64,000 bases of DNA from Alphaproteobacteria bacterium. Its GTDB lineage: Bacteria > Pseudomonadota > Alphaproteobacteria > JAPOUT01 > G958296285. The DNA is taken from the NCBI GenBank assembly GCA_965212115.1, contig CBDBUR010000001.1, positions 240,596 to 304,595 on the forward strand. Direction: 5' to 3'. Shown one piece after another: positions 36,935 to 57,273 of the stretch (position 1 is the first letter of the stretch; each line of letters starts with the position of its first letter). The notes beneath the pieces were generated by a model that saw nothing but the letters and a program-made list of their open reading frames with translations, was not told the origin of the DNA and did not search any database. The translations under genes were made by a program, and so were the position numbers.

Positions 36935-38194
36935 TTAAAACCGCGAAAGCGAAAATGGCGTCGGATCAAGCATCGGCGCGCGGCGTGAAATGAGATCCGC
37001 CGTCAATTGCGCGCTCGCATGACATAAAGTCCAGCCCAAAGACCCATGGCCGGTATTCAAATAAAGATTATCCATCATCTGCGCACGGCCCAAGAGCGGC
37101 AGACCGTCGGGTGTCATCGGGCGCTCGCCGATCCAAAACTGCGCCGACGCGCCATCTGCGCTTTCAGGAAGCAGCTCGCGCCATGCGCGCATCAAAATAT
37201 CCGCGCGATGACTGGGGATCTCATTGCCCGCCGCGCCGATATCAGCCAGACCCGCCAAGCGCAATTGCGCGCCCAAGCGACTCACAACGACGCGGCGCGC
37301 CTCATCCACCAGGCCCAGGCGAGGCGCATGAGCTCCATTAGTTGCCATCGTCACCGAATAGCCGCGCACTGGATAAACCGGCAACCGCAATCCGAAATGC
37401 CGCGCAAACGCGACGCTGTCTGTGCCCAGCGCCAAAACAAAAGCATCGCCGCTGACCTCGCCGCGGCTCGTCAACACAGCTCGAATATAACGCCCCTGCG
37501 TTGCGACGCCATTCAGTTCATGGTTGAATAAAAACTTGACGCCCTTCGCCGCCGCGCGCGCGCCGAGGGCTTCAGTAAAAGCGCGCGCGTCGCCGGTTTT
37601 GTCGTCTGGAAACAGCAGCCCCGCTTCAACGCGGCGATATTGCACCGCCTTGGTCAAAGCGGGTTCGGTGCGCATACAATTGTATCCATCGAGCACCTCG
37701 ACCTCGATTCCATTAGCGCTCATCAATTGAGCGCGTTTTTGCGCGCGCTGCATCGCTTTGCGCCCGGCAAATATATGCACAACGCCCTGCGCGCTGACAT
37801 GAAAATCTTGATCGGCGATTTCATCAAGCCATTGCGTAAAACAGGCCTGGCTCAAAGCCGCCAGTGATAATAAACGATGCGCATTAATCCCCCATGACCC
37901 GGACGAAGCGCTCCGGACCATCCGCGCAAGCCACATCCACTGCGCCGGATCAGTGCGCAAATGCAGACGCATAGCGCCTCGATGATGAAAGAAGCTCAAA
38001 AGCAGACGGCGCAAAATTAGCATGCTCGACCAAGGCAGGGCATCGCCCGTTGCAATATGACCGCCATTGGCAAAGCTCGTGCCGCGCGCCACGGTCGCGT
38101 GGCGATCAATGACGATCACCTCATGGCCATCGCGCGCGAGAGCCCAACTTGCACAAATGCCTGCCAATCCTGCACCTAAAACAATTATTTTCAT
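36935..38194 (-). CDS. FAD-dependent oxidoreductase, D-amino-acid dehydrogenase (DadA)-like
   Basis: MKIIVLGAGLAGICASWALARDGHEVIVIDR (GxGxxG Rossmann motif) within a DAO-family body. The start is placed at 38194 rather than the track's 38227. Confidence 0.8.
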   Translation of the reverse strand: MKIIVLGAGLAGICASWALARDGHEVIVIDRHATVARGTSFANGGHIATGDALPWSSMLILRRLLLSFFHHRGAMRLHLRTDPAQWMWLARMVRSASSGSWGINAHRLLSLAALSQACFTQWLDEIADQDFHVSAQGVVHIFAGRKAMQRAQKRAQLMSANGIEVEVLDGYNCMRTEPALTKAVQYRRVEAGLLFPDDKTGDARAFTEALGARAAAKGVKFLFNHELNGVATQGRYIRAVLTSRGEVSGDAFVLALGTDSVAFARHFGLRLPVYPVRGYSVTMATNGAHAPRLGLVDEARRVVVSRLGAQLRLAGLADIGAAGNEIPSHRADILMRAWRELLPESADGASAQFWIGERPMTPDGLPLLGRAQMMDNLYLNTGHGSLGWTLCHASAQLTADLISRRAPMLDPTPFSLSRF

Positions 38195-38359
38195 TTCTGC
38201 TTTTACTCTCCCTAGGTGTGGCGTCAATTAACCGTCTTGACCCTCCCTGTGACGGCTTAGCTTGCCGAAAAAACAAACACCATAAAATGATTTTTGATAT
38301 CCCCGTCCACAATGGAGCGCTGTATATTACAACTAATGAGCACTTTATATTCTTTGTAT

Positions 38360-38374
38360 GTTCTATTTATGTTC
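38360..38374. promoter_or_regulatory. GTTC-N7-GTTC direct repeat (matches the alphaproteobacterial LexA/SOS box consensus) upstream of the GafY-like gene
   Basis: gttc tatttat gttc at 38360-38374, which is 57-71 nt upstream of the ATG at 38431, inside an AT-rich promoter-like stretch. Confidence 0.45.
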
Positions 38375-38430
38375 TTTGTATATACTCTTTTTACACGTAT
38401 AGAGTGCATTTCATCAATAAGGAGGCAAAT

Positions 38431-38811
38431 ATGGGAGATATCCACACTCAACCCAATCGACAATCCGCACAGGCGCGGGTTGACTTAGCACAAGCTGCCG
38501 TTGCGCGAGCTTTCAACGTCGAACTAGCCGCGATGCGTGCGCCAACAAGATGTAAAGCGCCGATCGCCTTCGCGCGCCAGACCGCGATGTATCTCAGTCA
38601 TGTGGCGCTCGGCGTCTCGCTGACGCGGACCGGCGCGTGTTTCGGACGCGATCGGACAACGGCCTCTCATGCGTGCCGCGTCATTGAGGAAAAACGCGAC
38701 GATCCTCATTTTGATATGCAATTATGTCGGCTTGAAGAAGGGCTGGCGCAAATTGCCGCACGGATTTCGCAGCCTTCTCATTATGTCGATCATGCGCGCA
38801 GCCCCCGGTGA
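38431..38811 (+). CDS. Small DnaA-domain-IV-like helix-turn-helix protein, a candidate GafY (N-terminal half of the GTA activator GafA)
   Basis: ARQTAMYLSHVALGVSLTRTGACFGRDRTTASHACRVIEEKRDD closely follows the DnaA C-terminal DNA-binding motif (ARQiAMYL....S...IG..FGRDHTTV.HA). AAGGAGG lies 6 nt upstream of the ATG. Confidence 0.75.
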   Translation: MGDIHTQPNRQSAQARVDLAQAAVARAFNVELAAMRAPTRCKAPIAFARQTAMYLSHVALGVSLTRTGACFGRDRTTASHACRVIEEKRDDPHFDMQLCRLEEGLAQIAARISQPSHYVDHARSPR

Positions 38812-39571
38812 TCAGATCGGGCGCAAGGCTTTTGAGCGCCAAGCCCGACAAATTTTGCGTCGCCTTGTTGCACCGAAAGCCTGCCTGCTGCCGCAGAAAG
38901 ACGGTGCCTACGGATTATATACAGCGCGATCAAAAACAAATGCCACTATGGTCTTCAATGCGGAATTGATCGCCGCCATGCGCGCGCATGATTTTCTTGT
39001 CAAGCACGGCGAAAAACTAACCGCAAGCCAGACCGGCGCGATGTGGCTCAGGCGGATCGAACTCAAAGAGCAAGATGCGTTTCGCGGCCAGCATCAAATG
39101 AGGGCCAAGCAAAAACATTCCTCCTGCAGCCCTGAGCGCGATGGCTGCGAAATCAACGTTACGGAAAACCCTCTGCTCTGGCTCAGCCGACGGCGCGGGC
39201 CGGATGGTCAAAACCTTATCAGCGAGACACAACTGCAAGCCGGACACCGCCTGCAAAATGATTTTGCCCGCAGCACAATGCGTCCGCGCCTCACTGTTGA
39301 TCTCGCAGCACCACCGGCCAATAAGCATTCCGGGCGGCGATCTCATGACGGGCTGCGCCTCGACGAAAGAGCGCTCGCCGCGCGCGACCGCTTTAATCGC
39401 GCGCTCAAAGCGCTTGGGCCGGGGCTTGCTGAAATCGCTGTAGAAATATGCTGCTATATGCGCGGCCTCGAGCAAGCCGAACGCGCGCTCAACTGGCCAA
39501 AGCGCGCCGGCAAGGTCGTGCTTGGCATTGCGCTAACGCGACTTGCTCACCATTACGGCATGATCCGCTAA
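38783..39571 (+). CDS. DUF6456-like protein with a C-terminal sigma-region-4/LuxR-like HTH, a candidate GafZ (C-terminal half of GafA)
   Basis: NPLLWLSRRRGPDGQNLISETQLQAGHRLQNDF and ICCYMRGLEQAERALNWPKRAGKVVLGIALTRLAHHYG match my recollection of the family that follows the small DnaA-like gene in alphaproteobacteria. It overlaps the upstream gene by about 29 nt. Confidence 0.6.
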   Translation: MSIMRAAPGDQIGRKAFERQARQILRRLVAPKACLLPQKDGAYGLYTARSKTNATMVFNAELIAAMRAHDFLVKHGEKLTASQTGAMWLRRIELKEQDAFRGQHQMRAKQKHSSCSPERDGCEINVTENPLLWLSRRRGPDGQNLISETQLQAGHRLQNDFARSTMRPRLTVDLAAPPANKHSGRRSHDGLRLDERALAARDRFNRALKALGPGLAEIAVEICCYMRGLEQAERALNWPKRAGKVVLGIALTRLAHHYGMIR

Positions 39572-39579
39572 TCTCTAAG

Positions 39580-40008
39580 TTAAACCGTGAGCGCTGTTTG
39601 CGCATCTTTTTTGATCCGCTGCACCATCGCATAAAAGCCGCTCGAACGCTGCGGTGTCAGATGATCGGCAAACCCCAATCGCTCGAATATGCCTTGGGAA
39701 TCAGCTTCTAACACCTCTTGCGGCAGCTTGTCGGAATAAATTTTCAGAAGCAGAGCGATCAGACCGCGCACAATATGCGCATCGCTCGTGCCACGAAAAA
39801 TAAGCCGACCCCCATCTCCTGACCCTGAGACCAGCCACACTTGACTCACACAGCCCGAAACTTTGTTCGCCGCAACCTGCTCGCCGCGCGACAAAGGCGC
39901 TAGACCATTGCCCATATCAATGAGATAGCGGTATTTATCCTCCCATGTCTCAAATAGAGCAAAATCATCCAAGACCTGCTGCAAGGTTATATCCTTTACG
40001 TCCATCAT
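39580..40008 (-). CDS. sufE: SufE-family cysteine desulfuration (sulfur acceptor) protein
   Basis: FETWEDKYRYLIDMG...KVSGCVSQVWLV is the SufE signature, including the acceptor Cys. Confidence 0.88.
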   Translation of the reverse strand: MMDVKDITLQQVLDDFALFETWEDKYRYLIDMGNGLAPLSRGEQVAANKVSGCVSQVWLVSGSGDGGRLIFRGTSDAHIVRGLIALLLKIYSDKLPQEVLEADSQGIFERLGFADHLTPQRSSGFYAMVQRIKKDAQTALTV

Positions 40009-40014
40009 GACATC

Positions 40015-41013
40015 CTACACAAAAAGCGGCTGCCCATGTCGAATGCGCCCCATCTGGCTTTCAATATCACTAATGAGCAGCGTCCACTTTCCTGCCGCGA
40101 TCCGGCGGCGCGCCACAGACTCCGCAGAACCGCCAAAAAGCGCAGACTCCCCATCACTGCCAAAAGCCGCAAGAAAGCTCCGTGCGATCAATTGATGCGC
40201 AAGCGTCGGAGTCAAAACCGGTGCCGCATAATCTGCCAGCCGCGATAAAGCCTCTGGGATCGTCTCAGCATAAAGCCCCAGCAAAACAAGATGACCAGAA
40301 CACGCCGCCGTCAAAGCCTGCGCCGCACATTCAGACTCTTTGATTTCATCAATCAAAATATAATAAGCCCCCGAACGACAGGCCGCGTGAACCGTCTCAC
40401 CCCAAGACATTTCAGAAATATGCGCCTGAACGCAATAACCCTCATGGTGCGCATTGTTATAAAGCCCGGCCAATCGATAGGCCGGACGGCTTTCCAAAGT
40501 CCACGCCAATTTCCCCTGCGCGCGCAGCAGCAAGCTCAGCAAAGACGATGATACCGCCGCACGGCGCATCTCATCCAAGCCCGTCGCGACAACAAGCCCG
40601 GCCTTGCCGCAACTCTGCTCAATATGCCAAATCAGCCCCGGCGACAAGCCCAATTGCGCTAAATCAGGCGCTTGTGCCTCAAGACGGCGCAAATGAAACA
40701 AAGCCCCATCAAACACAACATCGGCGCGCAGTGGCAGGCGGCTGAAATGATAAACACAGCCATCATGATGAACCTCGCCGACTGCGTCGCCGCGCGTGCG
40801 CACAAGATCGTAAAGACTCTGGCTATCGGCAATGATGCCGCGCGATACCACAGCTAAATCCATCCCCGGTTCATTCAAAATAGAGCGCAGAAAATCCGCG
40901 CCCCCTTCCGCAACAAGACGCTCAAGCGCAAGCAGGTCGCCGTCAATCGACAGCAGCACACGCCCGTCCATCGTGAAATAAAGATCACTCATCCTGATCT
41001 TTGAAAGACTCAT
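40015..41013 (-). CDS. PilT/GspE-superfamily-like protein with degenerate nucleotide-binding motifs (predicted pseudo-ATPase)
   Basis: The N-terminal SDLYFTMDGRVLLSIDGDL resembles the PilT SDLHL...R..G.L motif. At the Walker A position it reads GLVVATGLDEMRRAAV, so there is no GxxGxGK[ST]. The Walker B/His-box region is still recognisable (YILIDEIKESECAAQALTAACSGHLVLLGLYAE). Confidence 0.6.
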   Translation of the reverse strand: MSLSKIRMSDLYFTMDGRVLLSIDGDLLALERLVAEGGADFLRSILNEPGMDLAVVSRGIIADSQSLYDLVRTRGDAVGEVHHDGCVYHFSRLPLRADVVFDGALFHLRRLEAQAPDLAQLGLSPGLIWHIEQSCGKAGLVVATGLDEMRRAAVSSSLLSLLLRAQGKLAWTLESRPAYRLAGLYNNAHHEGYCVQAHISEMSWGETVHAACRSGAYYILIDEIKESECAAQALTAACSGHLVLLGLYAETIPEALSRLADYAAPVLTPTLAHQLIARSFLAAFGSDGESALFGGSAESVARRRIAAGKWTLLISDIESQMGRIRHGQPLFV

Positions 41014-41052
41014 ATCAATATACCTTTCAATAAACCTTAGAATTTGGCGAGA

Positions 41053-41535
41053 TCAGCCCATATTATTGAACCATATTAACTGTATCGCATTTTTCGTTTT
41101 ATTGGCAAAGCCCCGACAATCATGCGCGCGCGTCCGAATGGCCTCGCTCCAATTGACGACATCATCAGCATCTTCAATAACATGAATCAAAAAACGCTCC
41201 GCGCTTAAAGTCTTGAGCAAATCCTCGCAGATAGAATCCGGAATCTGTGTGAGCCGCACTTGAATATGCGACGAACCGACGCTGCCATCTCCGGTGCTGC
41301 GGCTGATCGTGAAATTTCCCCAAGGATTCTTGCCGCGATCATCATAGGCTGTGCTCAAAGCGCGATAATCCCGCTCGGTGGCAAAATCGGCGCGGATCTG
41401 TCCCAATGTGCTGTTTATGCCCGCCATTAATATATCGACATCGTCCCGCTCCTGATTCAGCGCGATGCCGCCCGCAACAATAACCCCCGCGACACAGATC
41501 ACGAATAAAGTATCAGGGAAAGCCTTTCGTCTCAT
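41053..41535 (-). CDS. Hypothetical membrane-anchored periplasmic protein (single N-terminal TM helix)
   Basis: MRRKAFPDTLFVICVAGVIVAGGIALNQ is followed by a soluble domain of about 130 aa. A 4-nt overlap with the upstream PilP-like gene suggests coupling. I recognise no known motif. Confidence 0.5.
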   Translation of the reverse strand: MRRKAFPDTLFVICVAGVIVAGGIALNQERDDVDILMAGINSTLGQIRADFATERDYRALSTAYDDRGKNPWGNFTISRSTGDGSVGSSHIQVRLTQIPDSICEDLLKTLSAERFLIHVIEDADDVVNWSEAIRTRAHDCRGFANKTKNAIQLIWFNNMG

Positions 41536-42008
41536 TTTCTAGCAGACACCGACAGCCTCGCCATCGGCAAAAGAAAAGTCCTGCCGCTTTGGACAAGCCT
41601 CACATTTTTCTCGGTGATCGCCTCGACGATGAACGGACGCGACGAACGCGCGTTGGAACCTGCGCTCAAACGATCTCCAATTTTGACGCGGATCACCTCA
41701 CGCTGCGGCGTCAAGAGATCAGCTTGCAGCTTCCCGCGCCAGCCCGCAATGAGCAGTATGCGATAGAATGGCTTTTGAGGCGTATTTTGAGTTCTAGGTT
41801 TTTGAGCCTGCTTGATCTTGCTCTTGGCCTCAGATTTTTTTGGCTTCTTTTGAGGCGTTTGGGCGCGCTTTTGGCGCTCTTGCTCAATTTGTTGCTGAAG
41901 AAATTTCTCCATCTGACTGGCCTGTGGACGCGCCTGCATCTCTTCGGTGAAAAGCAGCACCCAAGCCATCAACCCCAAGATCATCAAACTTCTACCCTGT
42001 CGTTTCAT
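41532..42008 (-). CDS. PilP-like (type IVb pilus biogenesis) periplasmic protein
   Basis: Signal peptide, then a lysine/glutamine-rich linker. The C-terminal beta domain is YRILLIAGWRGKLQADLL...VKIGDRLS...FIVEAITEKNVRLVQSGRTFLL, which resembles the PilP fold consensus. The position after the secretin fits. Confidence 0.5.
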   Translation of the reverse strand: MKRQGRSLMILGLMAWVLLFTEEMQARPQASQMEKFLQQQIEQERQKRAQTPQKKPKKSEAKSKIKQAQKPRTQNTPQKPFYRILLIAGWRGKLQADLLTPQREVIRVKIGDRLSAGSNARSSRPFIVEAITEKNVRLVQSGRTFLLPMARLSVSARK

Positions 42009-43542
42009 CAGACCTATCCACGATCGTCGGCGTGATCAAAATGATGATGACCTTGCGTGATTCAACTTTGTCGGCTTCAACGTTAGATTTAACGTCAGCC
42101 TCCACCTTAACAACATCATGTTCAAAACCCGAAACGACAAGAGTCGTGCCATCAGGAATGACCGTCTCTTGCGCCCAAGAGCTCGTCGAGATTTCGGGGA
42201 TTTGAACCCTGTTATTGCCCGCGCCCAAACTCTTGAGTCGGCTGAGCAGGCGCAATGACATCGACATATCCACCTGAACCCGATCGCGCGGCAAAATATG
42301 CGGGCGCAAATTCATCGAAAAACCGGTCGTGATTGTCGCAGGTGAAGCTGCACTGCCGCTCGCTGCACTGCCGCTCGCCGCTGCTGCCGTCGGACGCGGC
42401 AAATAGGCGCGCTGCGATATCGTCTTGATGGGTATAACTTTGCCGTCGCGTGTGCGCGTATCGGTGATCGTCAAAACAGAGACTTTGCCAACCTTGCGCA
42501 GCGCCGCAATAATCACATCAGTGCCGACGTCCGCCAATTTAATCTGCGGCGGCTTTTTGGATTTTTTATCCTCATCCAAGAGCGGTATCTGGCTGTCCAA
42601 ACCGATCGCCTCCAACAAGGCAGGCAGATTCAAACGGCCTCGATCCGAAAAACTCCGGCCGCCACTGACATCAAATGACAAAACCTGAACGTTTAAGTGA
42701 ATCTCACGGATGAAATATCGATTATGCGCGCGAATAAATTTCGCGGCCTGCTGCATGGCCGGAGGCGTGGTCGTCAATGTAATTTTGCCCGCCTCAGGCG
42801 ATAGATAAATCCGCGAGCCCGACGGCATCACGCTGGCCAAAATGCGCTTGATCCCCTGCCACCTTTTGCCCTCCGCAAGCAGCGGCGAGGCCGCTTCACC
42901 GGCCGCGCGCGAATCTAAAACAGGCAGCGCCACCGCGACACCATCGGGCGGCGCGTAAAAATCAAATGCGCGCGTCATGAGCCTCGTAAAAACAAGACTG
43001 CGGCTTTTTCGGTCATAAGACCATGAGGCCTCAAAGGCGCTCGCGACAACATCGAGCAGGCCCGTCAGTGCGCCGCGATAGTTCAAGCGCGCGAGCTTCA
43101 CCAGCTTGATCTCTCCGACATGGCCTGTTCTCACCCGCACCGGAATGCCAGCCATCTCAGATATTCTGCGGGAGATATGCTTGAGCTTCAAATCCACCGC
43201 GCTGATAAAAACCAGCTCCTGCTGATGCGTGATCGCGTCCGGCAGATTTTGTTGTCCCGGCGTGAAAAACTCCGACTCATCGCCGAGCCAAGCCTTGTCA
43301 ACATAGCGCGTGAGAGAACGCTGCGCTTTTTTCTTTTTCTCTTGTTTCTTTTGTTGGGGCCTCTCCTTGAGACTCTGCTGCAGCGCTTGATAGAATACTT
43401 GACGCTTTTCTTTGCTGCGCGCCTGCTCTTTTTCTTTCTGCACGGCCTCCTGCGAAGGCGGCGGCGCGATTTCACGAAATGAATAAGCGGCGCAGCCCGA
43501 CAGCAAAACAAAAGCGAGAAAAAAAACGATCAAACGCATCAT
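41992..43542 (-). CDS. Outer-membrane lipoprotein secretin (PilN/TcpC-like, type IVb family)
   Basis: Lipobox MMRLIVFFLAFVLLSGC. The C-terminal secretin-like core is VLTITDTRTRDGKVIPIK...IPEISTSSWAQETVIPDGTTLVVSGFEHD...RKVIIILITPTIV. Confidence 0.7.
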   Translation of the reverse strand: MMRLIVFFLAFVLLSGCAAYSFREIAPPPSQEAVQKEKEQARSKEKRQVFYQALQQSLKERPQQKKQEKKKKAQRSLTRYVDKAWLGDESEFFTPGQQNLPDAITHQQELVFISAVDLKLKHISRRISEMAGIPVRVRTGHVGEIKLVKLARLNYRGALTGLLDVVASAFEASWSYDRKSRSLVFTRLMTRAFDFYAPPDGVAVALPVLDSRAAGEAASPLLAEGKRWQGIKRILASVMPSGSRIYLSPEAGKITLTTTPPAMQQAAKFIRAHNRYFIREIHLNVQVLSFDVSGGRSFSDRGRLNLPALLEAIGLDSQIPLLDEDKKSKKPPQIKLADVGTDVIIAALRKVGKVSVLTITDTRTRDGKVIPIKTISQRAYLPRPTAAAASGSAASGSAASPATITTGFSMNLRPHILPRDRVQVDMSMSLRLLSRLKSLGAGNNRVQIPEISTSSWAQETVIPDGTTLVVSGFEHDVVKVEADVKSNVEADKVESRKVIIILITPTIVDRSDETTG

Positions 43543-44276
43543 TGAACACCCTCGCCCGCCTCAATGACAACAACACGGTTCTTATAAAAAACTGCATGAA
43601 TCGCAGAGCGCTTCTTCTCAAACGATGCCAAAACGCGACCGACGGCTTTCGGAAAATCTCCGATGAAAACAGCGTTGGCCTCGATCGGATATTCATAGGA
43701 CGACTTCCAAACAACGCGCCAGCCCGCGCGCGCGCCCCATTTTGCAAGTGTGCTCTGCAGCGTCTGTCCGGCATAGACCTGCCACCAATTCGGATTGAGC
43801 AGAGGATCACGCGAAGACACCCCAGTGATCGTCTGGCGCGGATACCATCTTTTGCCTGTCACCTCCTCATAGGCGTCATAGGCCGAGCTCATCAGCTCAT
43901 CAAGCAGGCGCTTTTTGTTGATCCCGCTTTTATAGACCGGCACCTCATAATCGGGGGTAGCTATTTTATTCGGATCGAAGTCATCGCCATAAAGCGCGCG
44001 GCCAAGACGATCAATCGCCTGATCGCCCTTCACGGCGGGCTTTTTGATCTTTTTTTGATCCAATGTACCGGGATCAATGTCGGCAGCTCCCGTTGAAACG
44101 CCATCTTGCGTCACAATGTAAGAATCCGGCGCAACCAATCCCTCCAACCCTTCCTGCGCCTCATCAGGCAGCACGATTTGCTCGCGGCTCGCGCAGCCGC
44201 TCAGAAAAACAAAAGCCGCCAAAATAGCTGCGCTCAAATTATAATTTTTTCTGCTCATATCCTTATATTTCCGCAT
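43539..44276 (-). CDS. Lipoprotein with a C-terminal TcpQ/PilL-like domain (secretin pilotin/partner)
   Basis: Lipobox AAFVFLSGC. The C-terminus WWQVYAGQTLQSTLAKWGARAGWRVVWKSSYEYPIEANAVFIGDFPKAVGRVLASF fits the TcpQ-domain pattern (W.v..G.tL...L..Wa..aGw.lvW....dy.i.a...f.G.f..Av..L). An ATGA overlap joins it to the secretin gene. The start is ambiguous (44336, 44276 or 44258). Confidence 0.65.
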   Translation of the reverse strand: MRKYKDMSRKNYNLSAAILAAFVFLSGCASREQIVLPDEAQEGLEGLVAPDSYIVTQDGVSTGAADIDPGTLDQKKIKKPAVKGDQAIDRLGRALYGDDFDPNKIATPDYEVPVYKSGINKKRLLDELMSSAYDAYEEVTGKRWYPRQTITGVSSRDPLLNPNWWQVYAGQTLQSTLAKWGARAGWRVVWKSSYEYPIEANAVFIGDFPKAVGRVLASFEKKRSAIHAVFYKNRVVVIEAGEGVQ

Positions 44277-44412
44277 TATCGGCTCAATTATCCACTCACC
44301 TCCCGACCAAACGGGGGCAGATAATATCTCTATCAATATCGCCTTAGGGTTAATTTTACCTTACCTCATAGCCTTGCGGCAGGCTCATTATATCTCCATA
44401 ATCGCTGCCAAA

Positions 44413-45669
44413 ATGAGCGAAATACCTGATATTCGACCAAGCCAGCGCATGGTGCTCACTTGGTATATGATGGGACAAAGCCTCTGGTTCATCGGACTAG
44501 GCATCCAATTTGTCGTGTTTCAGGCAATCGGTGCCCTCACCTTAAACCTCAGCGGCACACAATTAGGCTTTGCGCAGTCTGCGCTGCTGTTGCCAACCCT
44601 GCTATTCATGCTGCCCGCCGGAGTCGCCGCCGAACGCAATGATGGCCGCTTGCTGCTCATCAGATTGCAGCTCGCCGCTATATTACCGCCGCTCGCACTC
44701 GGCTTCATGGTGCTCACTGGACAATTAGACTTCATCGGCCTCATCATCTACGCCGTCATGATGGGTATCATCTCCTCCTTCGTGATGCCAACACGCGATG
44801 CGCTCATCTCTTACATCGTCAGCCCGCACGAAATCCAGCGCGCCGTGACAGTCGCGACCGGCTTGCAATTTGTCGGCCAGATCATCGGCATGACCTTCGT
44901 CGGCCTGTTGGCGCTTGATATTGGCTGGATGCCGATGTTCCAAGCCCTCGCTCTTGTGTTGGCCGCTTTTGTGACCCATCGCCTGCCCTACCGGCTCATG
45001 CCGTCGGCGTCGCGGCAAACCTACGATTCTTCGGCGCGGCGCGCGGCGCAAATCATGGATGGCTTGCGGCTCGCTTTTTCGCATCGCGAAATCGCGCCGG
45101 TCATCATCCTAACGTTCTTTATCAGCCTGTTTTATATGGGCACGTTTTTTGTCTTCTTCCCGCTCATCGTGCGCGATTATTATCACGGCAACACCGGAGA
45201 CATCGCAACCCTCAATATATTGTTCTTTGCCGGCATGGTGTCCGCTTCGATCGTGCTGCTGCGTGCCGGACGAATCGAACATCTTGGCCGCTTACTCGTC
45301 TTCGCCGCCATTACCGGGTTAATCGTCCTTATCTCGCTGTCCATTCCCGGCCCCCTGTGGTGGCCCGCCGCTCTATGCGGCCTGTGGGGATGCGGCGGTG
45401 GAGTCTTTATGTCGGTCAGCCGGACGATCGTCCAAAGTCGCGCGCCGGAAAGCCATCGCGGGCGGCTCTTGTCGATCTACCAGCTCTCCTTCCTCGGCGG
45501 CGCGCCGCTTGGCACGTTGATGTTCGGCGCGTTTGCTGATATTATCGATAATCTCCATGCAACACCCCTCGTGCCGATGATCGGTATGTTCATCACACTC
45601 ATTTGTGTTGTCTTCTCAACCGGACTCTGGAATATCAAGCTCGACCAAAACGAACAAAAAATCGAATAA
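44413..45669 (+). CDS. MFS transporter (MFS_3/EntS-like), paralogue 1
   Basis: 12-TM-like hydrophobic profile. It is about 45-50% identical by eye to the next ORF (WYMMGQSLWFIGLGIQFVVFQAIGAL versus WYMAGQAFWFLAHGIQLVAFQAIGAL). Confidence 0.8.
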   Translation: MSEIPDIRPSQRMVLTWYMMGQSLWFIGLGIQFVVFQAIGALTLNLSGTQLGFAQSALLLPTLLFMLPAGVAAERNDGRLLLIRLQLAAILPPLALGFMVLTGQLDFIGLIIYAVMMGIISSFVMPTRDALISYIVSPHEIQRAVTVATGLQFVGQIIGMTFVGLLALDIGWMPMFQALALVLAAFVTHRLPYRLMPSASRQTYDSSARRAAQIMDGLRLAFSHREIAPVIILTFFISLFYMGTFFVFFPLIVRDYYHGNTGDIATLNILFFAGMVSASIVLLRAGRIEHLGRLLVFAAITGLIVLISLSIPGPLWWPAALCGLWGCGGGVFMSVSRTIVQSRAPESHRGRLLSIYQLSFLGGAPLGTLMFGAFADIIDNLHATPLVPMIGMFITLICVVFSTGLWNIKLDQNEQKIE

Positions 45670-45689
45670 AAAACATCGAATAAAAAACT

Positions 45690-46964
45690 ATGAGTGAAAT
45701 CGCAAGAACCGAAACCCCCGCTTTGCCTTGGTATATGGCCGGACAAGCTTTCTGGTTCCTCGCGCATGGGATCCAGCTCGTCGCCTTCCAAGCGATCGGC
45801 GCGCTAGTGCTAAAACTTGACGCGACGATGCTCGGCGTCGCGCAGGCCTCGCTGCTGATACCCGCACTTTTTCTGATGCTGCCCGCCGGGGTCACTGCCG
45901 AGCGCAATGATGGCCGGATTATATTATTGCGGCTGCAGATCGTCGCGTTTTTTCCGCCGATCGCGCTGGGCTATATGGTGCTCGCCGACCAGCTGAGCTT
46001 GTTTGGCCTGATCATCTATGGCGTTGCGATGGGGACGATCAGCTCGTTCGTGATGCCCGCGCGCGACGCACTTCTGTCGCACATTGTCGGGGTTGATCAG
46101 ATACAGCGCGCGGTCAATATCGCGTTAGGCCTACAATTCACGGCAATGCTGACCGGCATGACTCTCGCCGCGCTTTCCGAGTTCATCGACATTGGCTGGA
46201 TACCCATCATGCAGAGCTTTATATTTATCGGCGCGAGCTATGCGGCGTTTCGTCTGCCGCGTGATCTCGCCCAGCGGCCAGAGCTATCCGGCGCGCTGCC
46301 GCGGCGACTGCCCGAAATGATTGACGGCATCAAAGTCGCGTTCGGCCATAAGGATATCTCACCGGTTCTGATTTTGCAGTTTGGGATTTCAATTTTTTAT
46401 ATCGGGACGTTTCTGGTGCTGCTGCCGATCTTGGTGCGCGATCATTATCAGGGCGACGCGGCAGACATAGCGATATTGAATATGATGTTTTGGGCAGGGA
46501 CGATCGTCTCGACGATCATGTTGCTGCGGATCGGGCAGATTGCCTCAGTCGGACGGCTACTGGCGATGGGTATCAGCTCTGGCCTTGTGGTGATTTTTCT
46601 GCTCTCCATCGAGAAGCCCTATTGGATGCTCGCCGCCCTTTGCGTATTTTGGGGGATCGCGGCAGGCTGTTCGATGTCGTCGGGACGGACGATCATCCAA
46701 AACCGCGCGCCGGACAGCCATCGCGCGCGGATTCTCTCGGTCTACCAGCTATCTTTTATGGGAGGCGCCCCGTTCGGCGCGCTCTTGACCGGCATTCTCG
46801 TTGATCTCTTCGGCAGCCATCAAGCGCCGTTATTCTCGGTCGGCGGGATGGGGATCATTTTGGCGCTTGTCGTGTGCTTCTCCGGCCTGTGGAACATCCG
46901 CCTGTCCGAGCGGGAGGTCGATAATGTCGAGGAAACCACCAGAATCACCGCCGAAGAAGAATAA
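45690..46964 (+). CDS. MFS transporter (MFS_3/EntS-like), paralogue 2
   Basis: Same architecture as the preceding gene, so this is a tandem duplication. Confidence 0.8.
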   Translation: MSEIARTETPALPWYMAGQAFWFLAHGIQLVAFQAIGALVLKLDATMLGVAQASLLIPALFLMLPAGVTAERNDGRIILLRLQIVAFFPPIALGYMVLADQLSLFGLIIYGVAMGTISSFVMPARDALLSHIVGVDQIQRAVNIALGLQFTAMLTGMTLAALSEFIDIGWIPIMQSFIFIGASYAAFRLPRDLAQRPELSGALPRRLPEMIDGIKVAFGHKDISPVLILQFGISIFYIGTFLVLLPILVRDHYQGDAADIAILNMMFWAGTIVSTIMLLRIGQIASVGRLLAMGISSGLVVIFLLSIEKPYWMLAALCVFWGIAAGCSMSSGRTIIQNRAPDSHRARILSVYQLSFMGGAPFGALLTGILVDLFGSHQAPLFSVGGMGIILALVVCFSGLWNIRLSEREVDNVEETTRITAEEE

Positions 46965-46969
46965 AAACC

Positions 46970-47254
46970 TTATAGTAGCCGTCTATAGCGACCATGCCGT
47001 TCATCATGGTGTTTTCTACACAAGACCTCAAGATTGCTTGGCCGATTATCACCTCTTTGACCGTTCTTATGATGGACTTCTATCAATCTATCTCTATCTA
47101 TATAATCTTTATAGCACTTACCGCCTTCCTCACAGGTATAGTTTTTTCTTTCTTTCCTTTCTTTCGCTATTTCTGGCCAATCCTTAGTATAATTTCCAGG
47201 CGGCATGGTTCCTGGCGTATTGCATGGTTTAGGTGGGGGCTTCATACTTTCCAT
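46970..47254 (-). CDS. HNH endonuclease domain protein (possible C-terminal part of a frameshifted ZorE-like effector)
   Basis: YTCEEGGKC...LIEVHHKNGQRGDNRPSNLEVLCRKHHDERH is a canonical HNH (beta-beta-alpha-Me) motif. It lies in the AT-rich island. Confidence 0.8.
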   Translation of the reverse strand: MESMKPPPKPCNTPGTMPPGNYTKDWPEIAKERKERKNYTCEEGGKCYKDYIDRDRLIEVHHKNGQRGDNRPSNLEVLCRKHHDERHGRYRRLL

Positions 47255-47735
47255 CTAAATAATCTCCAAAATTAAAATCTTCCCTTTTTATATTTGTATT
47301 ATTGATTTTATTATAGATGTCAAGGCAAGGTTGGCAAGGCAATAATTCATACAGCTTCTCAGGAGGTTCTTTATTATCAATAATAAGTTTTGCAGGAAAT
47401 TTTTCATCACCTCTTCTTACCCAAACAAATTTGTCTTTATAATCATTTTCATTCTGCTTCTTTTGAAGAACCCAACAATTTGTAAGGTGAACTCTGCGCC
47501 TGTCTTCTATATTATTAACAGGATCTTTGCCATAGTGAGACTGATACGTTTGATTATAAATATAAACGAGATACCACTGCCTATATTTCCCAAATACTCC
47601 TTCCGGTCCTACAAACTTCTCGATATCTTTCAGTTCAATATCACCACCTTCTTCCATTATATACACTTTGCCTCGGAGGTGAGGAGGTAAAATCCTGTCT
47701 AAAGTTTCCCGCACTTCTGATATATCAATATTCAT
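47229..47735 (-). CDS. Hypothetical protein (168 aa) of the MotAB-HNH island (possible N-terminal part of a ZorE-like effector)
   Basis: I recognise no motif. It is AT-rich, has a 4-nt overlap with the upstream MotB-like gene, and a 26-nt out-of-frame overlap with the HNH ORF. Confidence 0.55.
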   Translation of the reverse strand: MNIDISEVRETLDRILPPHLRGKVYIMEEGGDIELKDIEKFVGPEGVFGKYRQWYLVYIYNQTYQSHYGKDPVNNIEDRRRVHLTNCWVLQKKQNENDYKDKFVWVRRGDEKFPAKLIIDNKEPPEKLYELLPCQPCLDIYNKINNTNIKREDFNFGDYLDGKYEAPT

Positions 47736-48427
47736 TTTTTCTCAAAACCTCTGATAATTTCTTCAATCCTACTTTCAGCTTTTGTGCGCACACGAAATTC
47801 AACCCGGCGTGAGAGGCGCTTATTTTCCCGCCCTCTCGTCTCACGCAACCGACTTGAAGACAGCCCGGTTGCCGTTAGATACCTCCTAATCCAAGAGCGA
47901 TACTGACCCACACCAGAGAGGCTATCAGCATATTTCAGAACAGCGAGTGTGCGCTCCTGAGAAAGTTTCATATTACAAAAATATGCATCCGGACATTTAT
48001 CATCCTCTTTCCATTCTGATGATGTATGACCTTCAATGCGCACTTCGCTGATTTCCTTTCTGTGCTCAGAGTGAAGCAAGTGAATAAAACGGGGGAAAAA
48101 ATCTCTGATAATCACCTTAAATCTTTTTTTGAGCTTTGCTTTTCCCGCATCAAAAAATACCCTTGGCGTATTGAAGCGAATTATCAAAGTATCGCGCTCA
48201 ATTTCCGCATTCCACCGCGGAAGATCATCCTTAAACTCTTCATATAGGCTTTCGTAAATTTTATCTTTTGAGTCCTTCCAAGCCTGCGCTGTATTAAGTG
48301 TCTGGAGAATAAAGGCGATTGCGATAAACAAAAACAGCACCATCAGCCCGGCCATGAGGTCAGACACAGAGAGCCATTGTTCTTGTTCTGAACCTTTGCC
48401 CTCGCCAAAAATCTGTTCCGTGCTCAT
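47732..48427 (-). CDS. MotB/OmpA-like stator subunit with a peptidoglycan-binding domain (ZorB-like)
   Basis: The single TM helix carries the conserved Asp (WLSVSDLMAGLMVLFLF, compare the MotB plug/Asp region). The C-terminal OmpA-like domain reads RIEGHTSSEW...MKLSQERTLAVLKY...NKRLSRRVEFRV. Confidence 0.8.
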   Translation of the reverse strand: MSTEQIFGEGKGSEQEQWLSVSDLMAGLMVLFLFIAIAFILQTLNTAQAWKDSKDKIYESLYEEFKDDLPRWNAEIERDTLIIRFNTPRVFFDAGKAKLKKRFKVIIRDFFPRFIHLLHSEHRKEISEVRIEGHTSSEWKEDDKCPDAYFCNMKLSQERTLAVLKYADSLSGVGQYRSWIRRYLTATGLSSSRLRETRGRENKRLSRRVEFRVRTKAESRIEEIIRGFEKK

Positions 48428-49617
48428 TGTCTTCCGTTGAACCTATCGATTGCTTGTGTCAGGCTGTCAACCGCCTGATTTACTTTATCATATTGACCAG
48501 CAAGCGCCTCCGCCAAAACCACTAAACGGTTTCCTAGTTCTTGAATGGCTGTTCTTAATGCGCGTTCTATCTCTCCGTCAAGAGCGTTTTGATTGTTTTT
48601 AATCGCTTCCAACAACTGCTTGGCGAATTTAGTTTGATCGACAACCGCATCTTTTGAGGTGTTAATGGCCTCATTAACCGCAGCGGCCATTCCTTCTGTC
48701 ATTGACTTCAAATTATTCTCTATAATTGGAAAAGTGTTTTGCGCCTTATCTCCGAGACTAGCTATCGCCGTAAGAGTTGCCTCTAATTTTGTTGTCTTAT
48801 CTCTAGCGTCCTCCAATAATGGGCCAAGGCTCTCAAGCGTCTCTGGCAAGGCCGTTGTCTTGTCCACAATCTGGGTCAAAGATTCAGCCGATCTGCCCAG
48901 ATCACCAATCACTCTTTTAATTTGCTCTTCAAGGTTATCCATTTGCTGGCGATAATTCTCTTGCCAATCCACTAACTTACCGACAGCTTCATTTAGCTGT
49001 TTGAAATTATCACCAAACTGCTCGTTAATCTTGGCATTAAAATCTCGCATAACATTTTCAAGAGCTTCTATAAGAGCTTGTGAATTGTCCTCAGCCATTT
49101 TTTGAGCAAACTCTTGAAACTCGAATATAAGTTTTTTGCTGTTATCATTCATTTCTGTCCGAAGATTCTTTAACTGGGTTAACAAGGTGTCGTCAGAATC
49201 TCCGGCAATAGACTTCCGCAAATCACTCAAAGCAGTTTTTTGCTCCTGTGTTGCATTTTGTATGCCCACCAAAACACTATGAATCTCGCCCGGCCCGACG
49301 TCGCCTTGACTAGCTTCTTCACCAAATGAACCGCGCGCAGAAAGAATCTTGAAGACAAGCCCTGCGAACATGCCAGCAATACTTGTCGCAAAAGCAATCT
49401 TAAGACCGCCAAGCAAAGGAGGAATGCTCTCTCTAATTTTTTGGGGATCTTCGACATTAAAATCCCACAAGCCAATAAAAATACCAACAAAAGTTCCAAG
49501 AACGCCAATTGTTGTAAGAGTCGCAGGAGTCGAGCTTCTAAGTTTAGAATTGCGCCACCCTTGTATAAAAAACAAAGCAATAACTACTACAAAAATTGCA
49601 ATAACGATGTATTCCAT
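48424..49617 (-). CDS. MotA/ExbB-family proton-channel protein with a C-terminal helical/coiled-coil tail of about 280 aa (ZorA-like)
   Basis: TM helices with MotA_ExbB motifs (TTIGVLGTFVGIFIGL; GLKIAFATSIAGMFAGLVFKIL). These are followed by a long E/K/Q/L/N-rich heptad-like sequence up to the stop. Confidence 0.78.
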   Translation of the reverse strand: MEYIVIAIFVVVIALFFIQGWRNSKLRSSTPATLTTIGVLGTFVGIFIGLWDFNVEDPQKIRESIPPLLGGLKIAFATSIAGMFAGLVFKILSARGSFGEEASQGDVGPGEIHSVLVGIQNATQEQKTALSDLRKSIAGDSDDTLLTQLKNLRTEMNDNSKKLIFEFQEFAQKMAEDNSQALIEALENVMRDFNAKINEQFGDNFKQLNEAVGKLVDWQENYRQQMDNLEEQIKRVIGDLGRSAESLTQIVDKTTALPETLESLGPLLEDARDKTTKLEATLTAIASLGDKAQNTFPIIENNLKSMTEGMAAAVNEAINTSKDAVVDQTKFAKQLLEAIKNNQNALDGEIERALRTAIQELGNRLVVLAEALAGQYDKVNQAVDSLTQAIDRFNGRQ

Positions 49618-49729
49618 AAAAATCCCCCCTAAATTAAGATCGTCCTGCCGACTGCGCAGGACAGAAATTTTACTATATCAGACTGGATCCCCGCTTGCGC
49701 GGGGATGACAAATGGAAACCAGCGCCTAT

Positions 49730-49795
49730 GACTAGCTTAGGACTAGCTTAGGACTAGCTTAGGACTAACTTATGACTAACTTATGACTAACTATA
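49730..49795. repeat. Six tandem copies of an 11-bp unit (gactagcttag x3, gactaacttat x2, gactaactata x1)
   Basis: Read directly from the sequence. The array overlaps the stop codon of the enoyl-CoA hydratase gene (49787-49789) and lies upstream of the ZorA-like gene. Confidence 0.9.
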
Positions 49796-54798: not shown

Positions 54799-55195
54799 AA
54801 ACAAAAAAAGCGAAGGCAATGAAGTCTGGCGTCAGAAACTCACGCCAGAGCAATATCACGTCACCCGCGAAGCCGGAACCGAACGCCCTTTCACCGGACC
54901 CCATTGGGACGAAAAACGCGGTGGACTCTATCACTGCATCTGCTGCGGGCAGCTCCTATTTTCATCGGCAACAAAATATGACAGCGGCACCGGCTGGCCA
55001 AGCTTCTATGCGCCTGCAAGCCGCAACGCCGTCGCCCAACATGATGATACGAGCCTCTCGATGCGCCGCACCGAGATCGCCTGCGCGCAATGTGATGCTC
55101 ATCTCGGCCATGTCTTCCCCGACGGCCCGCCGCCGACCGGTCTGCGCTATTGCATGAACGGCCACGCGCTCGATTTTCATCGTCAAAAAACATGA
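54791..55195 (+). CDS. msrB: Peptide-methionine (R)-S-oxide reductase
   Basis: [20 protein letters not shown]...[11 protein letters not shown]...GWPSF...[12 protein letters not shown] is the SelR/MsrB signature with both CxxC pairs. The start is TTG. Confidence 0.9.
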
Positions 55196-57273
55196 TCACG
55201 CCGCCGCGCGCGCTCAAAAAGCCCGCACAAGATGTTCACCATGGCCTCACCCGCAAAGATGATTATGCATGGCTCAAAGCCGATAATTGGCGCGACGTCA
55301 TCCATGATGGTTCAGCCCTGCCGCAAGACATTCGCGCTCATCTTGAGACCGAAAACAAATATGCCGAGCAAGTTTTGCAGCCGGTCGATCAATTGCGCCA
55401 AACTCTGCTCAACGAAATGAAAGCGCGCATTCCTCCCGATGACAAAAGCGTCCCTGAACGCGATGGCGATTATTTCTATTATGATCGTTTCTCAGCGCGC
55501 GATGAGCAGCCGCGCCTCTGCCGCGCGCAGGGCGATCAGCCTGACACGCCCGAAGAAATCATGCTTGATGGCAATAAAGAGGCGCAAAATCACAGTTTTT
55601 TCAAGCTGGGCACAGCCGCGCATAGTCCCGATCATCAATGGCTCGCTTGGGCGGCGGACTTGTCGGGCGGAGAATATTGGACGATCCGCATCCGCGACCT
55701 CACGGCGCAAAAAGACAACGACACCATCATCAACAGCGACGGCACCGCCATCTGGGCGGCGGATAGCCGTCATTTTTTCTATATTCATGTTGATCAAAAT
55801 CACCGCCCCTGCGAGGTGCGCTGCCACCTGACCGGCAGTGATCCGGCAAAAGATGCGGTCGTCTTTCGTGAGCCCAACCCCGCCTTTTTTTTATCCCTCA
55901 ATCAAATGCAGAGCGAAGATTACATAACGATCAATTCTTATGATCACAGCTCATCGGAGGTTCGCCTGATCGACGCGCATGAGCCTAAAAAATCGCCGCG
56001 TCTTATCGCGGCGCGGCGCGATAAGATCGAATACAGCATTGAATATGATCGCGCGCATCAAAGATTTTTTATGCTGACTAACAACAATGCGATCGATTTC
56101 AAAATCATGGCCGCGCCAGAACAAAATCTCAGTGCATGGCACGATTTCATTCCCGCGCGCAGCGGCGTTTATATTATCGATTTCAACCTTTATAAAAATT
56201 ATCTCATCTGGCTCACGCGCGAAAAAGGCCTTCCATGTCTGCTGGTTCGTGATCTCACATCGGACAAGACCTCTCAGCTATCCTTTGGCGATGAGCCGCA
56301 TGATCTTGATATTGAACCAGGTCTTCTCTACGCAACGAATAATCTACGTGTCCATTACAGCTCGATGCGCCAGCCGGAGCAGGTCTATGACATCAATATG
56401 GCAACACAAGAGCGAACCCTGCGCAAAACACAGCAAATCCCCAGCGGCCACAATCCCGATGATTATGCCACCAAAAGAATCTTCGCCAAAGCGCACGACG
56501 GCGAGACAATCCCGATCTCTCTTTTATATCATGTCCGCACGCCACCCGATGGCGCGCGGCCTCTTTTGCTCTACGGCTATGGCGCTTATGGCATTACGAT
56601 TCCGGCTTATTTTTCATCGGCGCGGCTGTCGCTGGTCAATCGCGGCGTCGCGATCGCGATCGCTCACATTCGCGGCGGCAGCGCCAAAGGACGCAAATGG
56701 TATCATGACGGCAAACTCAATCGCAAAACTAACAGCTTCAAAGACTTCATCGCCGTCGCTGAATATCTCGTGCAGCACCAATACGCTCAACACGGCAACA
56801 TCACCGCACAAGGCGGATCCGCTGGGGGTATGCTCATGGGTGCCGTCACCAATATGGCGCCCGATCTGTTTCGCGCCATCATCGCCCAAGTGCCTTTCGT
56901 GGATGTGCTCGCGACAATGCTCGATAAAAACCTCCCTCTCACTCCAGCCGAATGGCTTGAATGGGGCAACCCCATCATCAATAAAACCGCCTATGAGCAA
57001 ATCGCCGCCTATTCCCCCTGCGATAATGTCCGCCCACAGGCCTATCCATGGATCCTCGCGACCGGCGGCCTCACCGATCCGCGCGTCGGATATTGGGAGC
57101 CCGCCAAATGGGTCGCCCGTCTGCGCGACGCTCAACAAAGCTCAGCGCCCATCCTGCTCAAAACCGAAATGCGCGCCGGTCATGGCGGTAAATCAGGCCG
57201 CTTCCGCCAACTCGAAGAAATCGCCCAAGCTTATGCCTTTGCCCTGCTCGCTCACGGCCTCACCGGCGCTTGA
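55192..57273 (+). CDS. ptrB: Oligopeptidase B / prolyl oligopeptidase family S9A serine protease
   Basis: [11 protein letters not shown] at the N-terminus, a beta-propeller region, the catalytic [10 protein letters not shown], and a C-terminal GHGG. The ATG at 55192 overlaps the msrB stop (ATGA). Confidence 0.88.

Follow-up and report, generated by a model that had tools for sequence, protein, structure and literature searches.

A collapsed type IVb pilus operon in a small alphaproteobacterial clade, possibly retained as a motor-less secretin complex

We analyzed a 64,000-nucleotide stretch of chromosomal DNA (hereafter, the window) from an uncultured alphaproteobacterium (assembly GCA_965212115.1, contig CBDBUR010000001.1, positions 240,596 to 304,595), whose minus strand carries a compact operon of five pil-like genes followed by sufE. 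Gene order and homology to complete pilus clusters indicate that this module is very probably the remnant of a type IVb pilus operon of the kind found in R64 and PAPI-1. Taking all lines of evidence together, we lean toward the reading that it is a domesticated, vertically inherited relic of a conjugative-element pilus that now acts as a stand-alone secretin complex lacking a motor. Its assembly motor, platform, and alignment genes are missing from the operon, its pilin-like protein has lost the site for prepilin processing, and its only remaining ATPase homolog has no intact P-loop, yet the core genes have been kept under purifying selection.

Results

A six-gene operon with a conserved four-gene core

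Six minus-strand open reading frames (ORFs) make up the operon. In gene order they are predicted to encode a PilL/TcpQ/BfpG-like outer-membrane lipoprotein (245 aa; 43539–44276), a PilN/BfpB-type lipoprotein secretin (516 aa; 41992–43542), a PilP-like periplasmic protein (158 aa; 41532–42008), a degenerate PilS-type pilin (160 aa; 41053–41535), a PilT-like pseudo-ATPase (332 aa; 40015–41013), and the housekeeping protein SufE (142 aa; 39580–40008). Successive genes overlap by 4 nt (ATGA), 17 nt, and 4 nt at the first three junctions, and the last two junctions are gaps of 39 and 6 nt. This layout had been described in a sequence-only reading of the same DNA and was reproduced in full when the coordinates were read again. 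Its description of the ORFs as intact, translationally coupled, and native in composition also holds, as the overlaps are kept and the GC content of the module is 0.50 to 0.55, compared with ~0.54 for the window. Pattern scans of the operon for promoters and terminators gave results at or near chance, and searches of the five module proteins with PADLOC and PHROGs returned no meaningful match.

Eight related loci were read. Seven are full-length; the eighth, L012, is limited to a contig of 2.7 kb whose start lies within the secretin gene. All share an arrangement in which two MFS_3 transporter genes (MFS, major facilitator superfamily) lie divergent from the genes for the TcpQ-like protein, the secretin, the PilP-like protein, and the pilin-like protein, which are followed by sufE and then by convergent genes for GafZ (DUF6456) and GafY (DnaA_C). 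The four-gene core is intact and syntenic, with its overlaps kept, in 7 of 7 further full-length loci, and its downstream part is present in L012. In every related locus sufE comes after the module, separated from it by a short gap or, in L012, overlapping the pilin-like gene by 4 nt.

The neighboring sulfite reductase and enoyl-CoA hydratase (ECH) are 71 to 88% identical across these loci, whereas the module proteins are 25 to 76% identical where they can be detected; tblastn does not find the PilP-like protein in the two full-length loci that diverge most. The module thus evolves faster than its neighbors. Pairwise ratios of nonsynonymous to synonymous substitution rates (dN/dS) nonetheless fall between 0.15 and 0.35 for module genes at dS values above 0.25 (0.13–0.19 for SufE), which indicates purifying selection rather than decay. 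The suspicion that the cluster might be a decaying or pseudogenized relic is therefore not borne out, either by the state of the ORFs or by these ratios.

Two lipoproteins correspond to the BfpB–BfpG outer-membrane complex

Lipobox sequences are present in both the TcpQ-like protein (FLSGC) and the secretin (LLSGC), whose genes overlap by 4 nt. The C-terminal domain of the former is an N0-like TcpQ domain (PF10671, E 4.6e-22, 78.3 bits against a cut-off of 27), and its single significant match in the PDB is BfpG (9u5s_R, E 2e-9). The sole PDB sequence match of the secretin is BfpB from the same structure (9u5s_A, E 2.7e-19), so both halves of the solved BfpB–BfpG complex are represented. These results agree with the proposal of the sequence-only reading that a TcpQ-domain lipoprotein and a lipoprotein secretin form a type IVb-style outer-membrane module.

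The secretin matches the PilN profile TIGR02520 across residues 230 to 505 (E 2.3e-37) with 128.7 bits, below the NCBI equivalog cut-off of 287.65, and it scores 27.3 bits with PF00263, 0.2 under the cut-off of 27.5. No match to Secretin_N_2 (PF07655) was found in the window secretin at E<1; its distant relative P0009 has one. Of the family assignments made from sequence alone, those of the TcpQ-domain lipoprotein and the type IVb lipoprotein secretin are upheld; that of PilP (see below) is weaker.

An AlphaFold2 (AF2) model of the secretin has a mean predicted local distance difference test (pLDDT) score of 56, with individual domains at 70 to 85, and is organized as a helix (residues 31–59) and linker, an N0 domain (~110–194), an N3 domain, and a barrel. 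When this model was used as a Foldseek query, it yielded 46 matches at E≤0.001, nearly all of them secretins, with 9u5s_A first (E 5.5e-19) and PilQ, InvG, and GspD after it. The core secretin motifs are invariant even in comparison with distant PilN proteins, as are lipobox residues G16 and C17. The protein ends directly after the last barrel strand and has no C-terminal S domain. Values of dN/dS are 0.22 to 0.30 for the secretin gene and 0.15 to 0.30 for the TcpQ-like gene.

In lipoprotein secretins such as BfpB, an N-terminal LG domain spans ~80 Å from the outer membrane to N0 and binds BfpG (PMC12531336). The K/Q-rich N terminus of the window secretin (helix 31–59 plus linker) would be the obvious analog of this domain. 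The K/Q-rich linkers that had been singled out as unusual in the secretin and the PilP-like protein are real, but that of the secretin is no oddity, because a domain of this type is known in lipoprotein secretins. Across the clade, the linker regions at window positions 42530–42640 (secretin) and 41770–41930 (PilP-like protein) vary in length through expansion of short repeats, with PAATP repeats in the L003 and L004 secretins and runs of poly-Pro in the L008 PilP-like protein (L008 11583–12167). This pattern suggests that linker length, rather than sequence, is constrained.

The middle of the TcpQ-like protein holds a block (FDPNK...YKSG...AYDAYEEVTG..WYP) that, like the lipobox, is conserved in the clade and that is absent from the canonical PilL proteins of complete clusters. 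The block lies at window positions 43740–43920 (residues ~115–175) and reads FDPNKI.APDY.VP.YKSG...ELMSSAYDAYEEVTG..WYPR, a pattern found in all clade members.

A PilP-like protein follows the secretin

The gene directly after that for the secretin encodes a protein with an HR-like C-terminal beta domain and a signal peptide. It also carries the conserved motif (Q/P)MExxLxxQIxQxR and a K/Q/P-rich linker whose length varies. The PilP profile TIGR03021 is the top NCBIfam match for six of seven family members, although all scores are below the cut-off (best E 3.8e-5; 22.9 bits for the window protein against 34.65), and one member matches GspC instead. An hhalign comparison with the positional counterpart in a complete pil cluster gave an E value of 7.5e-5 and a probability of 62%. 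The relatives carry A-x-A-type signal-peptide cleavage sites and no lipobox Cys, so the protein is probably soluble and periplasmic. The evidence for a PilP identity is weak but consistent: the architecture, the position, and the ranking of matches fit the PilP-like label given from sequence alone, whereas the profile score falls short of the curated threshold.

The 160-aa protein is a pilin derivative that appears to be unprocessable

The fourth protein had been classed as a membrane-anchored unknown in a module with no pilin, and this classification has to be revised. The match of the window protein to Pfam PilS (PF08805) is marginal (E 0.011; 16.2 bits, under the cut-off of 22). A profile built from four orthologs was searched, with no word index, against 1.84 billion representative proteins and recovered only seven matches, four of them small proteins of similar type from elsewhere in the clade. 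Another of the seven, P0019, is a genuine type IVb prepilin with a processing site (RG|LTLVE), an N-methylation motif, and a PF08805 score of 32.5 bits, above the cut-off. With hhalign, the eight-member family aligns to P0019 over 104 columns (probability 97.3%, E 2.3e-11). Note that a shallow six-sequence profile had been uninformative when aligned to PilS and PilM from the pil cluster of L005; the informative alignment to P0019 was obtained after divergent members had been added.

Features common to the family and P0019 are the long N-terminal helix with its Gly, the NPWG and (I/V)P(D/E)xxC motifs, and a C-terminal Cys. C103 is invariant and C140 is present in eight of nine aligned sequences. 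In contrast to P0019, all eight family members have Lys at the position of Gly-1 and Thr at that of Glu+5. The ORF starts as MRRKAFPDTLFV, ~8 residues before the hydrophobic helix, and it cannot be extended upstream in the window, which leaves no room for a leader. The profile alignments thus point to a PilS-type pilin derivative that should be neither cleavable nor N-methylatable. Because it has no cleavage site, the protein should remain bitopic in the inner membrane with its head in the periplasm. The gene is under purifying selection, with dN/dS values of 0.07 to 0.24.

The PilT-like protein is a pseudo-ATPase of restricted distribution

By hhalign, the fifth protein aligns over 251 columns (probability 98%, E 4.5e-14) to the small second T2SSE ATPase of an ICE-type pil cluster (ICE, integrated conjugative element; L005 7768–8721). 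Its score with TIGR01420 is 39.4 bits, compared with a cut-off of 319. Alignment to PilF and PilT structures reveals that Walker A has changed from GPTGSGKS to GLDEMRRA, the Asp box from EDPVE to ESRPA, and the His box from TLHT to GLYA. Three of four motifs are therefore substituted, and only the Asp-Glu of Walker B is retained.

Apart from the window, only L001 has the gene, which makes two of nine clade loci; the two copies are 68% identical with a dN/dS of 0.195. It is cleanly missing from L002, L003, L004, L008, L010, L011, and L012. The loss of Walker A noted in the sequence-only reading is thus correct, but a dead PilT-like protein does not define the module, being absent from seven of the eight related loci. 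The gene is an accessory, dispensable part that lies outside the conserved core.

The module retains the gene order of a complete pil cluster

No match was found when the window was searched by tblastn with PilO, PilQ, PilR, PilM, PilV, and transglycosylase (SLT) sequences, with PilO and PilR taken from two complete clusters; the absence from the window of PilO, PilQ, PilR, and PilV equivalents that the sequence-only reading had reported is thereby upheld. In the 10-kb flanks of the related loci, there are no Pfam calls for T2SSF, PAP_PilO, or an assembly ATPase, and PilM, PilV, and SLT are likewise not called there. A prepilin peptidase is found neither among the annotated genes of the window, most of whose other ORFs were not scanned, nor among the Pfam calls of the related loci.

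Close homologs of the secretin are rare. Among 5.8 billion proteins there are ~8 with 60 to 62% identity, all from metagenome-assembled genomes of 1.6 to 1.9 Mb, and one of these is the GTDB species representative OZ243043.1, "Alphaproteobacteria bacterium". A scan of GTDB species genomes with the secretin alignment recovered OZ243043.1 only, and a scan of IMG/VR found no match.

The next relatives (P0009 and P0010) are 26 to 27% identical and lie in complete pil clusters. The first of these clusters is ordered PilL-PilN-(195 aa)-PilO-PilQ-PilR-PilS-PilT-PilM-SLT-PilV; the second reads PilL-PilN-PilO-PilP-PilQ-PilR, at which point its contig ends. Removal of PilO, PilQ, PilR, and everything after PilT from the first cluster leaves exactly the order seen in the window. 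This retained order, together with the homology to complete clusters, is what identifies the module as a collapsed operon of the R64/PAPI-1 type. Searches of the literature found nothing relevant on an orphan secretin, on a reduced PilL/PilN/PilP module, or on a link between gene transfer agents (GTAs) and a secretin, in keeping with the earlier remark that this is not a described system.

sufE is an ancestral neighbor of gafYZ

The terminal gene encodes a clear SufE (PF02657, E 7.9e-41, 139.1 bits against a cut-off of 27), as had been proposed. An alignment of the clade's GafZ proteins was used to scan JGI metagenome contigs, from which 80 gafZ loci with 34 to 55% identity were retained (L013–L092), and the presence of other genes was scored by tblastn with the window proteins of this region. 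SufE was detected in 65 of these loci and GafY in 61. In 19 of 21 long loci with a listed position, sufE is convergent with gafZ and lies no more than ~260 nt from its end, mostly less than 150 nt. The TcpQ-like, secretin, PilP-like, pilin-like, PilT-like, and MFS genes are each found in 0 of the 80.

The gafY-gafZ-sufE group (window 38149–40008) is therefore an old and widespread alphaproteobacterial triad, upstream of whose sufE the pil module was inserted in one lineage. This history explains why the operon ends in SufE and why it lies next to gafYZ, and sufE is probably co-transcribed as its last gene. Because sufE accompanies gafYZ without the module in these loci, the adjacency to GTA-related genes is an accident of the insertion site, and the speculation that the module takes part in GTA traffic loses its sole support. 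The GTA literature consulted does not mention the triad, for which we know of no functional explanation, and neither a secretin nor SufE is assigned a role in the RcGTA literature. We considered rcc01866, an RcGTA gene adjacent to gafA, as a possible sufE counterpart and set it aside, as it is not described as such.

A separate observation concerns a 690- to 700-aa ORF that in the window is located at 55192–57273 on the plus strand. In about half of the long gafZ loci, a homolog with ~50% identity is found 3 to 5 kb upstream of gafY; the window ORF is ~16 kb from gafY, across the module.

The divergent spacer, the MFS pair, and a defense islet

Two tandem genes for MFS_3 (EntS-like) transporters (PF05977, PF07690) occupy positions 44374–46964 on the plus strand, divergent from the module, and such a pair adjoins the module in all eight loci in which that side is visible. 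The ~100-bp spacer contains a short block, AAAATTAACC (44348–44357, minus strand), that is invariant in six of six aligned spacers and is followed by a TATA-like element; the remaining spacer could not be aligned. The block may possibly be a promoter or operator element and is offered only as a lead. It resembles the CtrA half-site TTAACCAT, which is matched exactly in L011. The pattern AAWTTAACC occurs twice in the window compared with 0.9 expected matches, and the full CtrA box TTAA-N7-TTAAC does not occur in the window.

The slot between the ECH and MFS genes is a variable defense islet (window 46965–49786; L001 3306–4748; L002 4653–6433; L003 4472–6178; L004 1613–6307; L010 1780–4511; L011 2667–4722), and its cargo differs by relative to include Zorya, methylase-HNH fusions, a type I restriction-modification system, a protein with a TPS domain, and an ORF of 1564 aa. 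L001 also has a DndB gene just outside the slot, upstream of an NmeDI_C gene. In the window, the slot holds a type II Zorya anti-phage system on the minus strand (46970–49617) within an AT-rich islet with a GC content of 0.39 to 0.45. ZorA2 (48424–49617, E 7e-83) and ZorB2 (47732–48427, E 3e-82) are accompanied by ZorE in the form of two overlapping ORFs, an N-terminal part (47229–47735) and an HNH part (46970–47254), and this split suggests a frameshift.

Discussion

A proposed path from pilus operon to secretin complex

We propose that a pil operon was inserted between an MFS pair and sufE in the common ancestor of these uncultured alphaproteobacteria, a small clade whose genomes are small, and that the set PilL-PilN-PilP-PilO-PilQ-PilR-PilS-PilT then collapsed to PilL-PilN-PilP-PilS(-PilT). 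The losses would have comprised the alignment protein, the assembly ATPase, the platform, the minor pilin, and the transglycosylase, together with the leader and peptidase site of the pilin and the P-loop of the remaining ATPase. With the motor, platform, and pilin processing gone, the module cannot polymerize a pilus on its own.

By analogy with characterized systems, the two lipoproteins may be sorted to the outer membrane and form a BfpB/BfpG-like multimeric secretin ring, in which the K/Q-rich N-terminal helix and linker of the secretin would provide the LG bridge to N0. The PilP-like protein could dock on the N0 ring, as PilP and the HR domains of GspC do. The uncleaved pilin-like protein, anchored in the inner membrane and carrying a disulfide-bonded periplasmic head, would then be a static partner or plug of the channel. 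The outcome would be a motor-less gated envelope channel or tether that makes no filament, with sufE as a passenger at the end of the transcript. That the module functions as a stand-alone channel in this manner is a tentative proposal from sequence comparison, and we hold it with distinctly less confidence than the account of its origin.

Comparison with known systems

The nearest structural counterpart is the BfpB–BfpG complex of enteropathogenic Escherichia coli (PDB 9u5s; PMC12531336), which is equivalent to TcpC–TcpQ of Vibrio cholerae and likewise combines a lipoprotein secretin of linker-N0-N3-barrel layout with a partner of the TcpQ/BfpG fold. That complex, however, belongs to a full machine with the BfpD ATPase, the BfpE platform, bundlin, and the BfpP peptidase, none of which is present here. 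In addition, the TcpQ-like protein described here is itself a lipoprotein with an extra conserved middle region of 60 aa, and identities are only ~17 to 25%.

With the pil clusters of the R64 thin pilus, PAPI-1, and ICE-type elements, the module shares the order L-N-P...S-T, lipoprotein PilL and PilN, a PilS-type pilin, and a PilT-like protein that corresponds to the small second ATPase. It differs from them in having no PilO, PilQ, PilR, PilM, PilV, or transglycosylase, a pilin without a cleavable leader, and an ATPase without a P-loop. Unlike those clusters, the locus sits in the chromosome, is native in composition, has been inherited vertically, and has no conjugation genes near it.

The 160-aa family resembles minor pilins and pseudopilins in its small size, its N-terminal hydrophobic helix, and the globular alpha/beta head with a C-terminal disulfide that follows. 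The pseudopilins and minor pilins known to us all retain the Gly-1 cleavage site, even where Glu+5 is missing, whereas every member of this family is without both leader and Gly-1. The PilT-like protein can be compared with inactive paralogs of the T2SSE/PilT family, with which it shares fold, length, and the Walker B Asp-Glu; here, the Walker A, Asp box, and His box are all substituted, and the gene is confined to two of nine loci.

Alternative explanations

Several points weigh against a stand-alone, motor-less complex. The channel, with its assembly and gating, and the pilin plug are inferred from homology. Only 64 kb of the genome is visible, so assembly components could be encoded elsewhere. 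The AF2 model of the pilin-like protein, made from a four-sequence alignment, is poor (pLDDT 44) and unsuited to a fold search, which means that the pilin homology is drawn entirely from sequence profiles. The PilP assignment is below curated cut-offs, and purifying selection on the PilT-like gene in its two genomes sits awkwardly with the view that this gene is dispensable.

The limited view of the genome leaves a small chance that the module supplies the outer-membrane half of a functional pilus or secretion machine, whose inner-membrane parts are located elsewhere, for example in a Tad/Cpa locus or that of another type IV filament. Type IV pilus genes are commonly split between loci, the barrel motifs of the secretin are fully conserved, and what can be seen is restricted to the window and the 10-kb flanks of its relatives. 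Such a machine would nevertheless have to work with a pilin that is without leader, Gly-1, and Glu+5 in every member and with an ATPase of its own that is dead or deleted. Tad systems moreover carry their own secretin, and a type IVb secretin–PilP pair normally co-evolves with cognate PilO, PilQ, and PilR, here lost from the operon. A different partner is offered by the transporters across the divergent spacer: the secretin might be the outer-membrane exit for a small molecule or peptide exported by the EntS-like MFS_3 pair, in a two-step route under a shared divergent promoter. The constant adjacency and the invariant spacer motif are compatible with this idea, and the absence of both the MFS pair and the module from the 80 other gafZ-sufE loci means that the two may have arrived, or been fixed, together. 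We nevertheless consider the coupling quite improbable, because the MFS genes evolve more slowly than the module (55–91% identity compared with 25–76%) and because the 20-kb region is syntenic throughout the clade, so that adjacency does not count as independent evidence. We also know of no precedent for MFS–secretin coupling.

The remaining alternatives deny the module a role of its own or tie it to the neighboring GTA genes. Descent from an ICE- or plasmid-type pil operon that has lost most of its genes, deletion of the PilT-like gene in most relatives, and rapid evolution relative to the neighbors are all features expected if the module were what is left of an integrated conjugative element, without function and slowly decaying. 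This explanation is nonetheless largely refuted and, in our judgment, very improbable, since every full-length locus retains all four core ORFs intact across saturated synonymous divergence, dN/dS values are low, the coupling overlaps are conserved, and composition is native. Service in GTA-mediated DNA or particle traffic is scarcely credible. In all syntenic relatives the module does adjoin gafYZ and lies ~5.7 kb from the GTA cluster, and its upstream motif resembles a CtrA half-site. Set against this are the antiquity of a gafY-gafZ-sufE triad that does not include the module, the confinement of the family to one small clade, and the contrast between a pilin-like family of seven members in 1.84 billion proteins and the widespread GTA clusters of alphaproteobacteria. 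GTA uptake proceeds via the Com machinery. Release of GTA particles occurs by cell lysis (PMC5026251), and published GTA work assigns no role to a secretin.

Implications

The reach of a motor-less secretin complex is limited by the tiny size of the family and by its being known from uncultured genomes only. What the comparison establishes is that a secretin, a TcpQ-type partner, a PilP-like protein, and an apparently unprocessable pilin have been kept by purifying selection after loss of the motor, platform, and alignment components, and it dispels an attractive but mistaken association with gene transfer agents. To our knowledge, secretins are known solely as outer-membrane parts of ATP-driven machines, namely type II and type III secretion systems, type IV pili, and the export systems of filamentous phages.

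As a further speculation, to which we assign only a low probability, the module may be an exapted envelope device made of a secretin ring, a PilP collar, and an anchored pseudo-pilin gate that serves the exit or entry of a substrate handled by MFS_3. Such a device, if real, would be the first secretin system to work without a type IV filament ATPase, platform, or peptidase. If there is no partner machine elsewhere in the genome, the module would imply that a secretin complex can by itself perform a function that selection maintains and that the pilin fold can be turned to a new use in a static protein anchored in the membrane, and its four proteins would constitute a type IVb outer-membrane complex that nature has reduced to a minimum and that lends itself to structural work.

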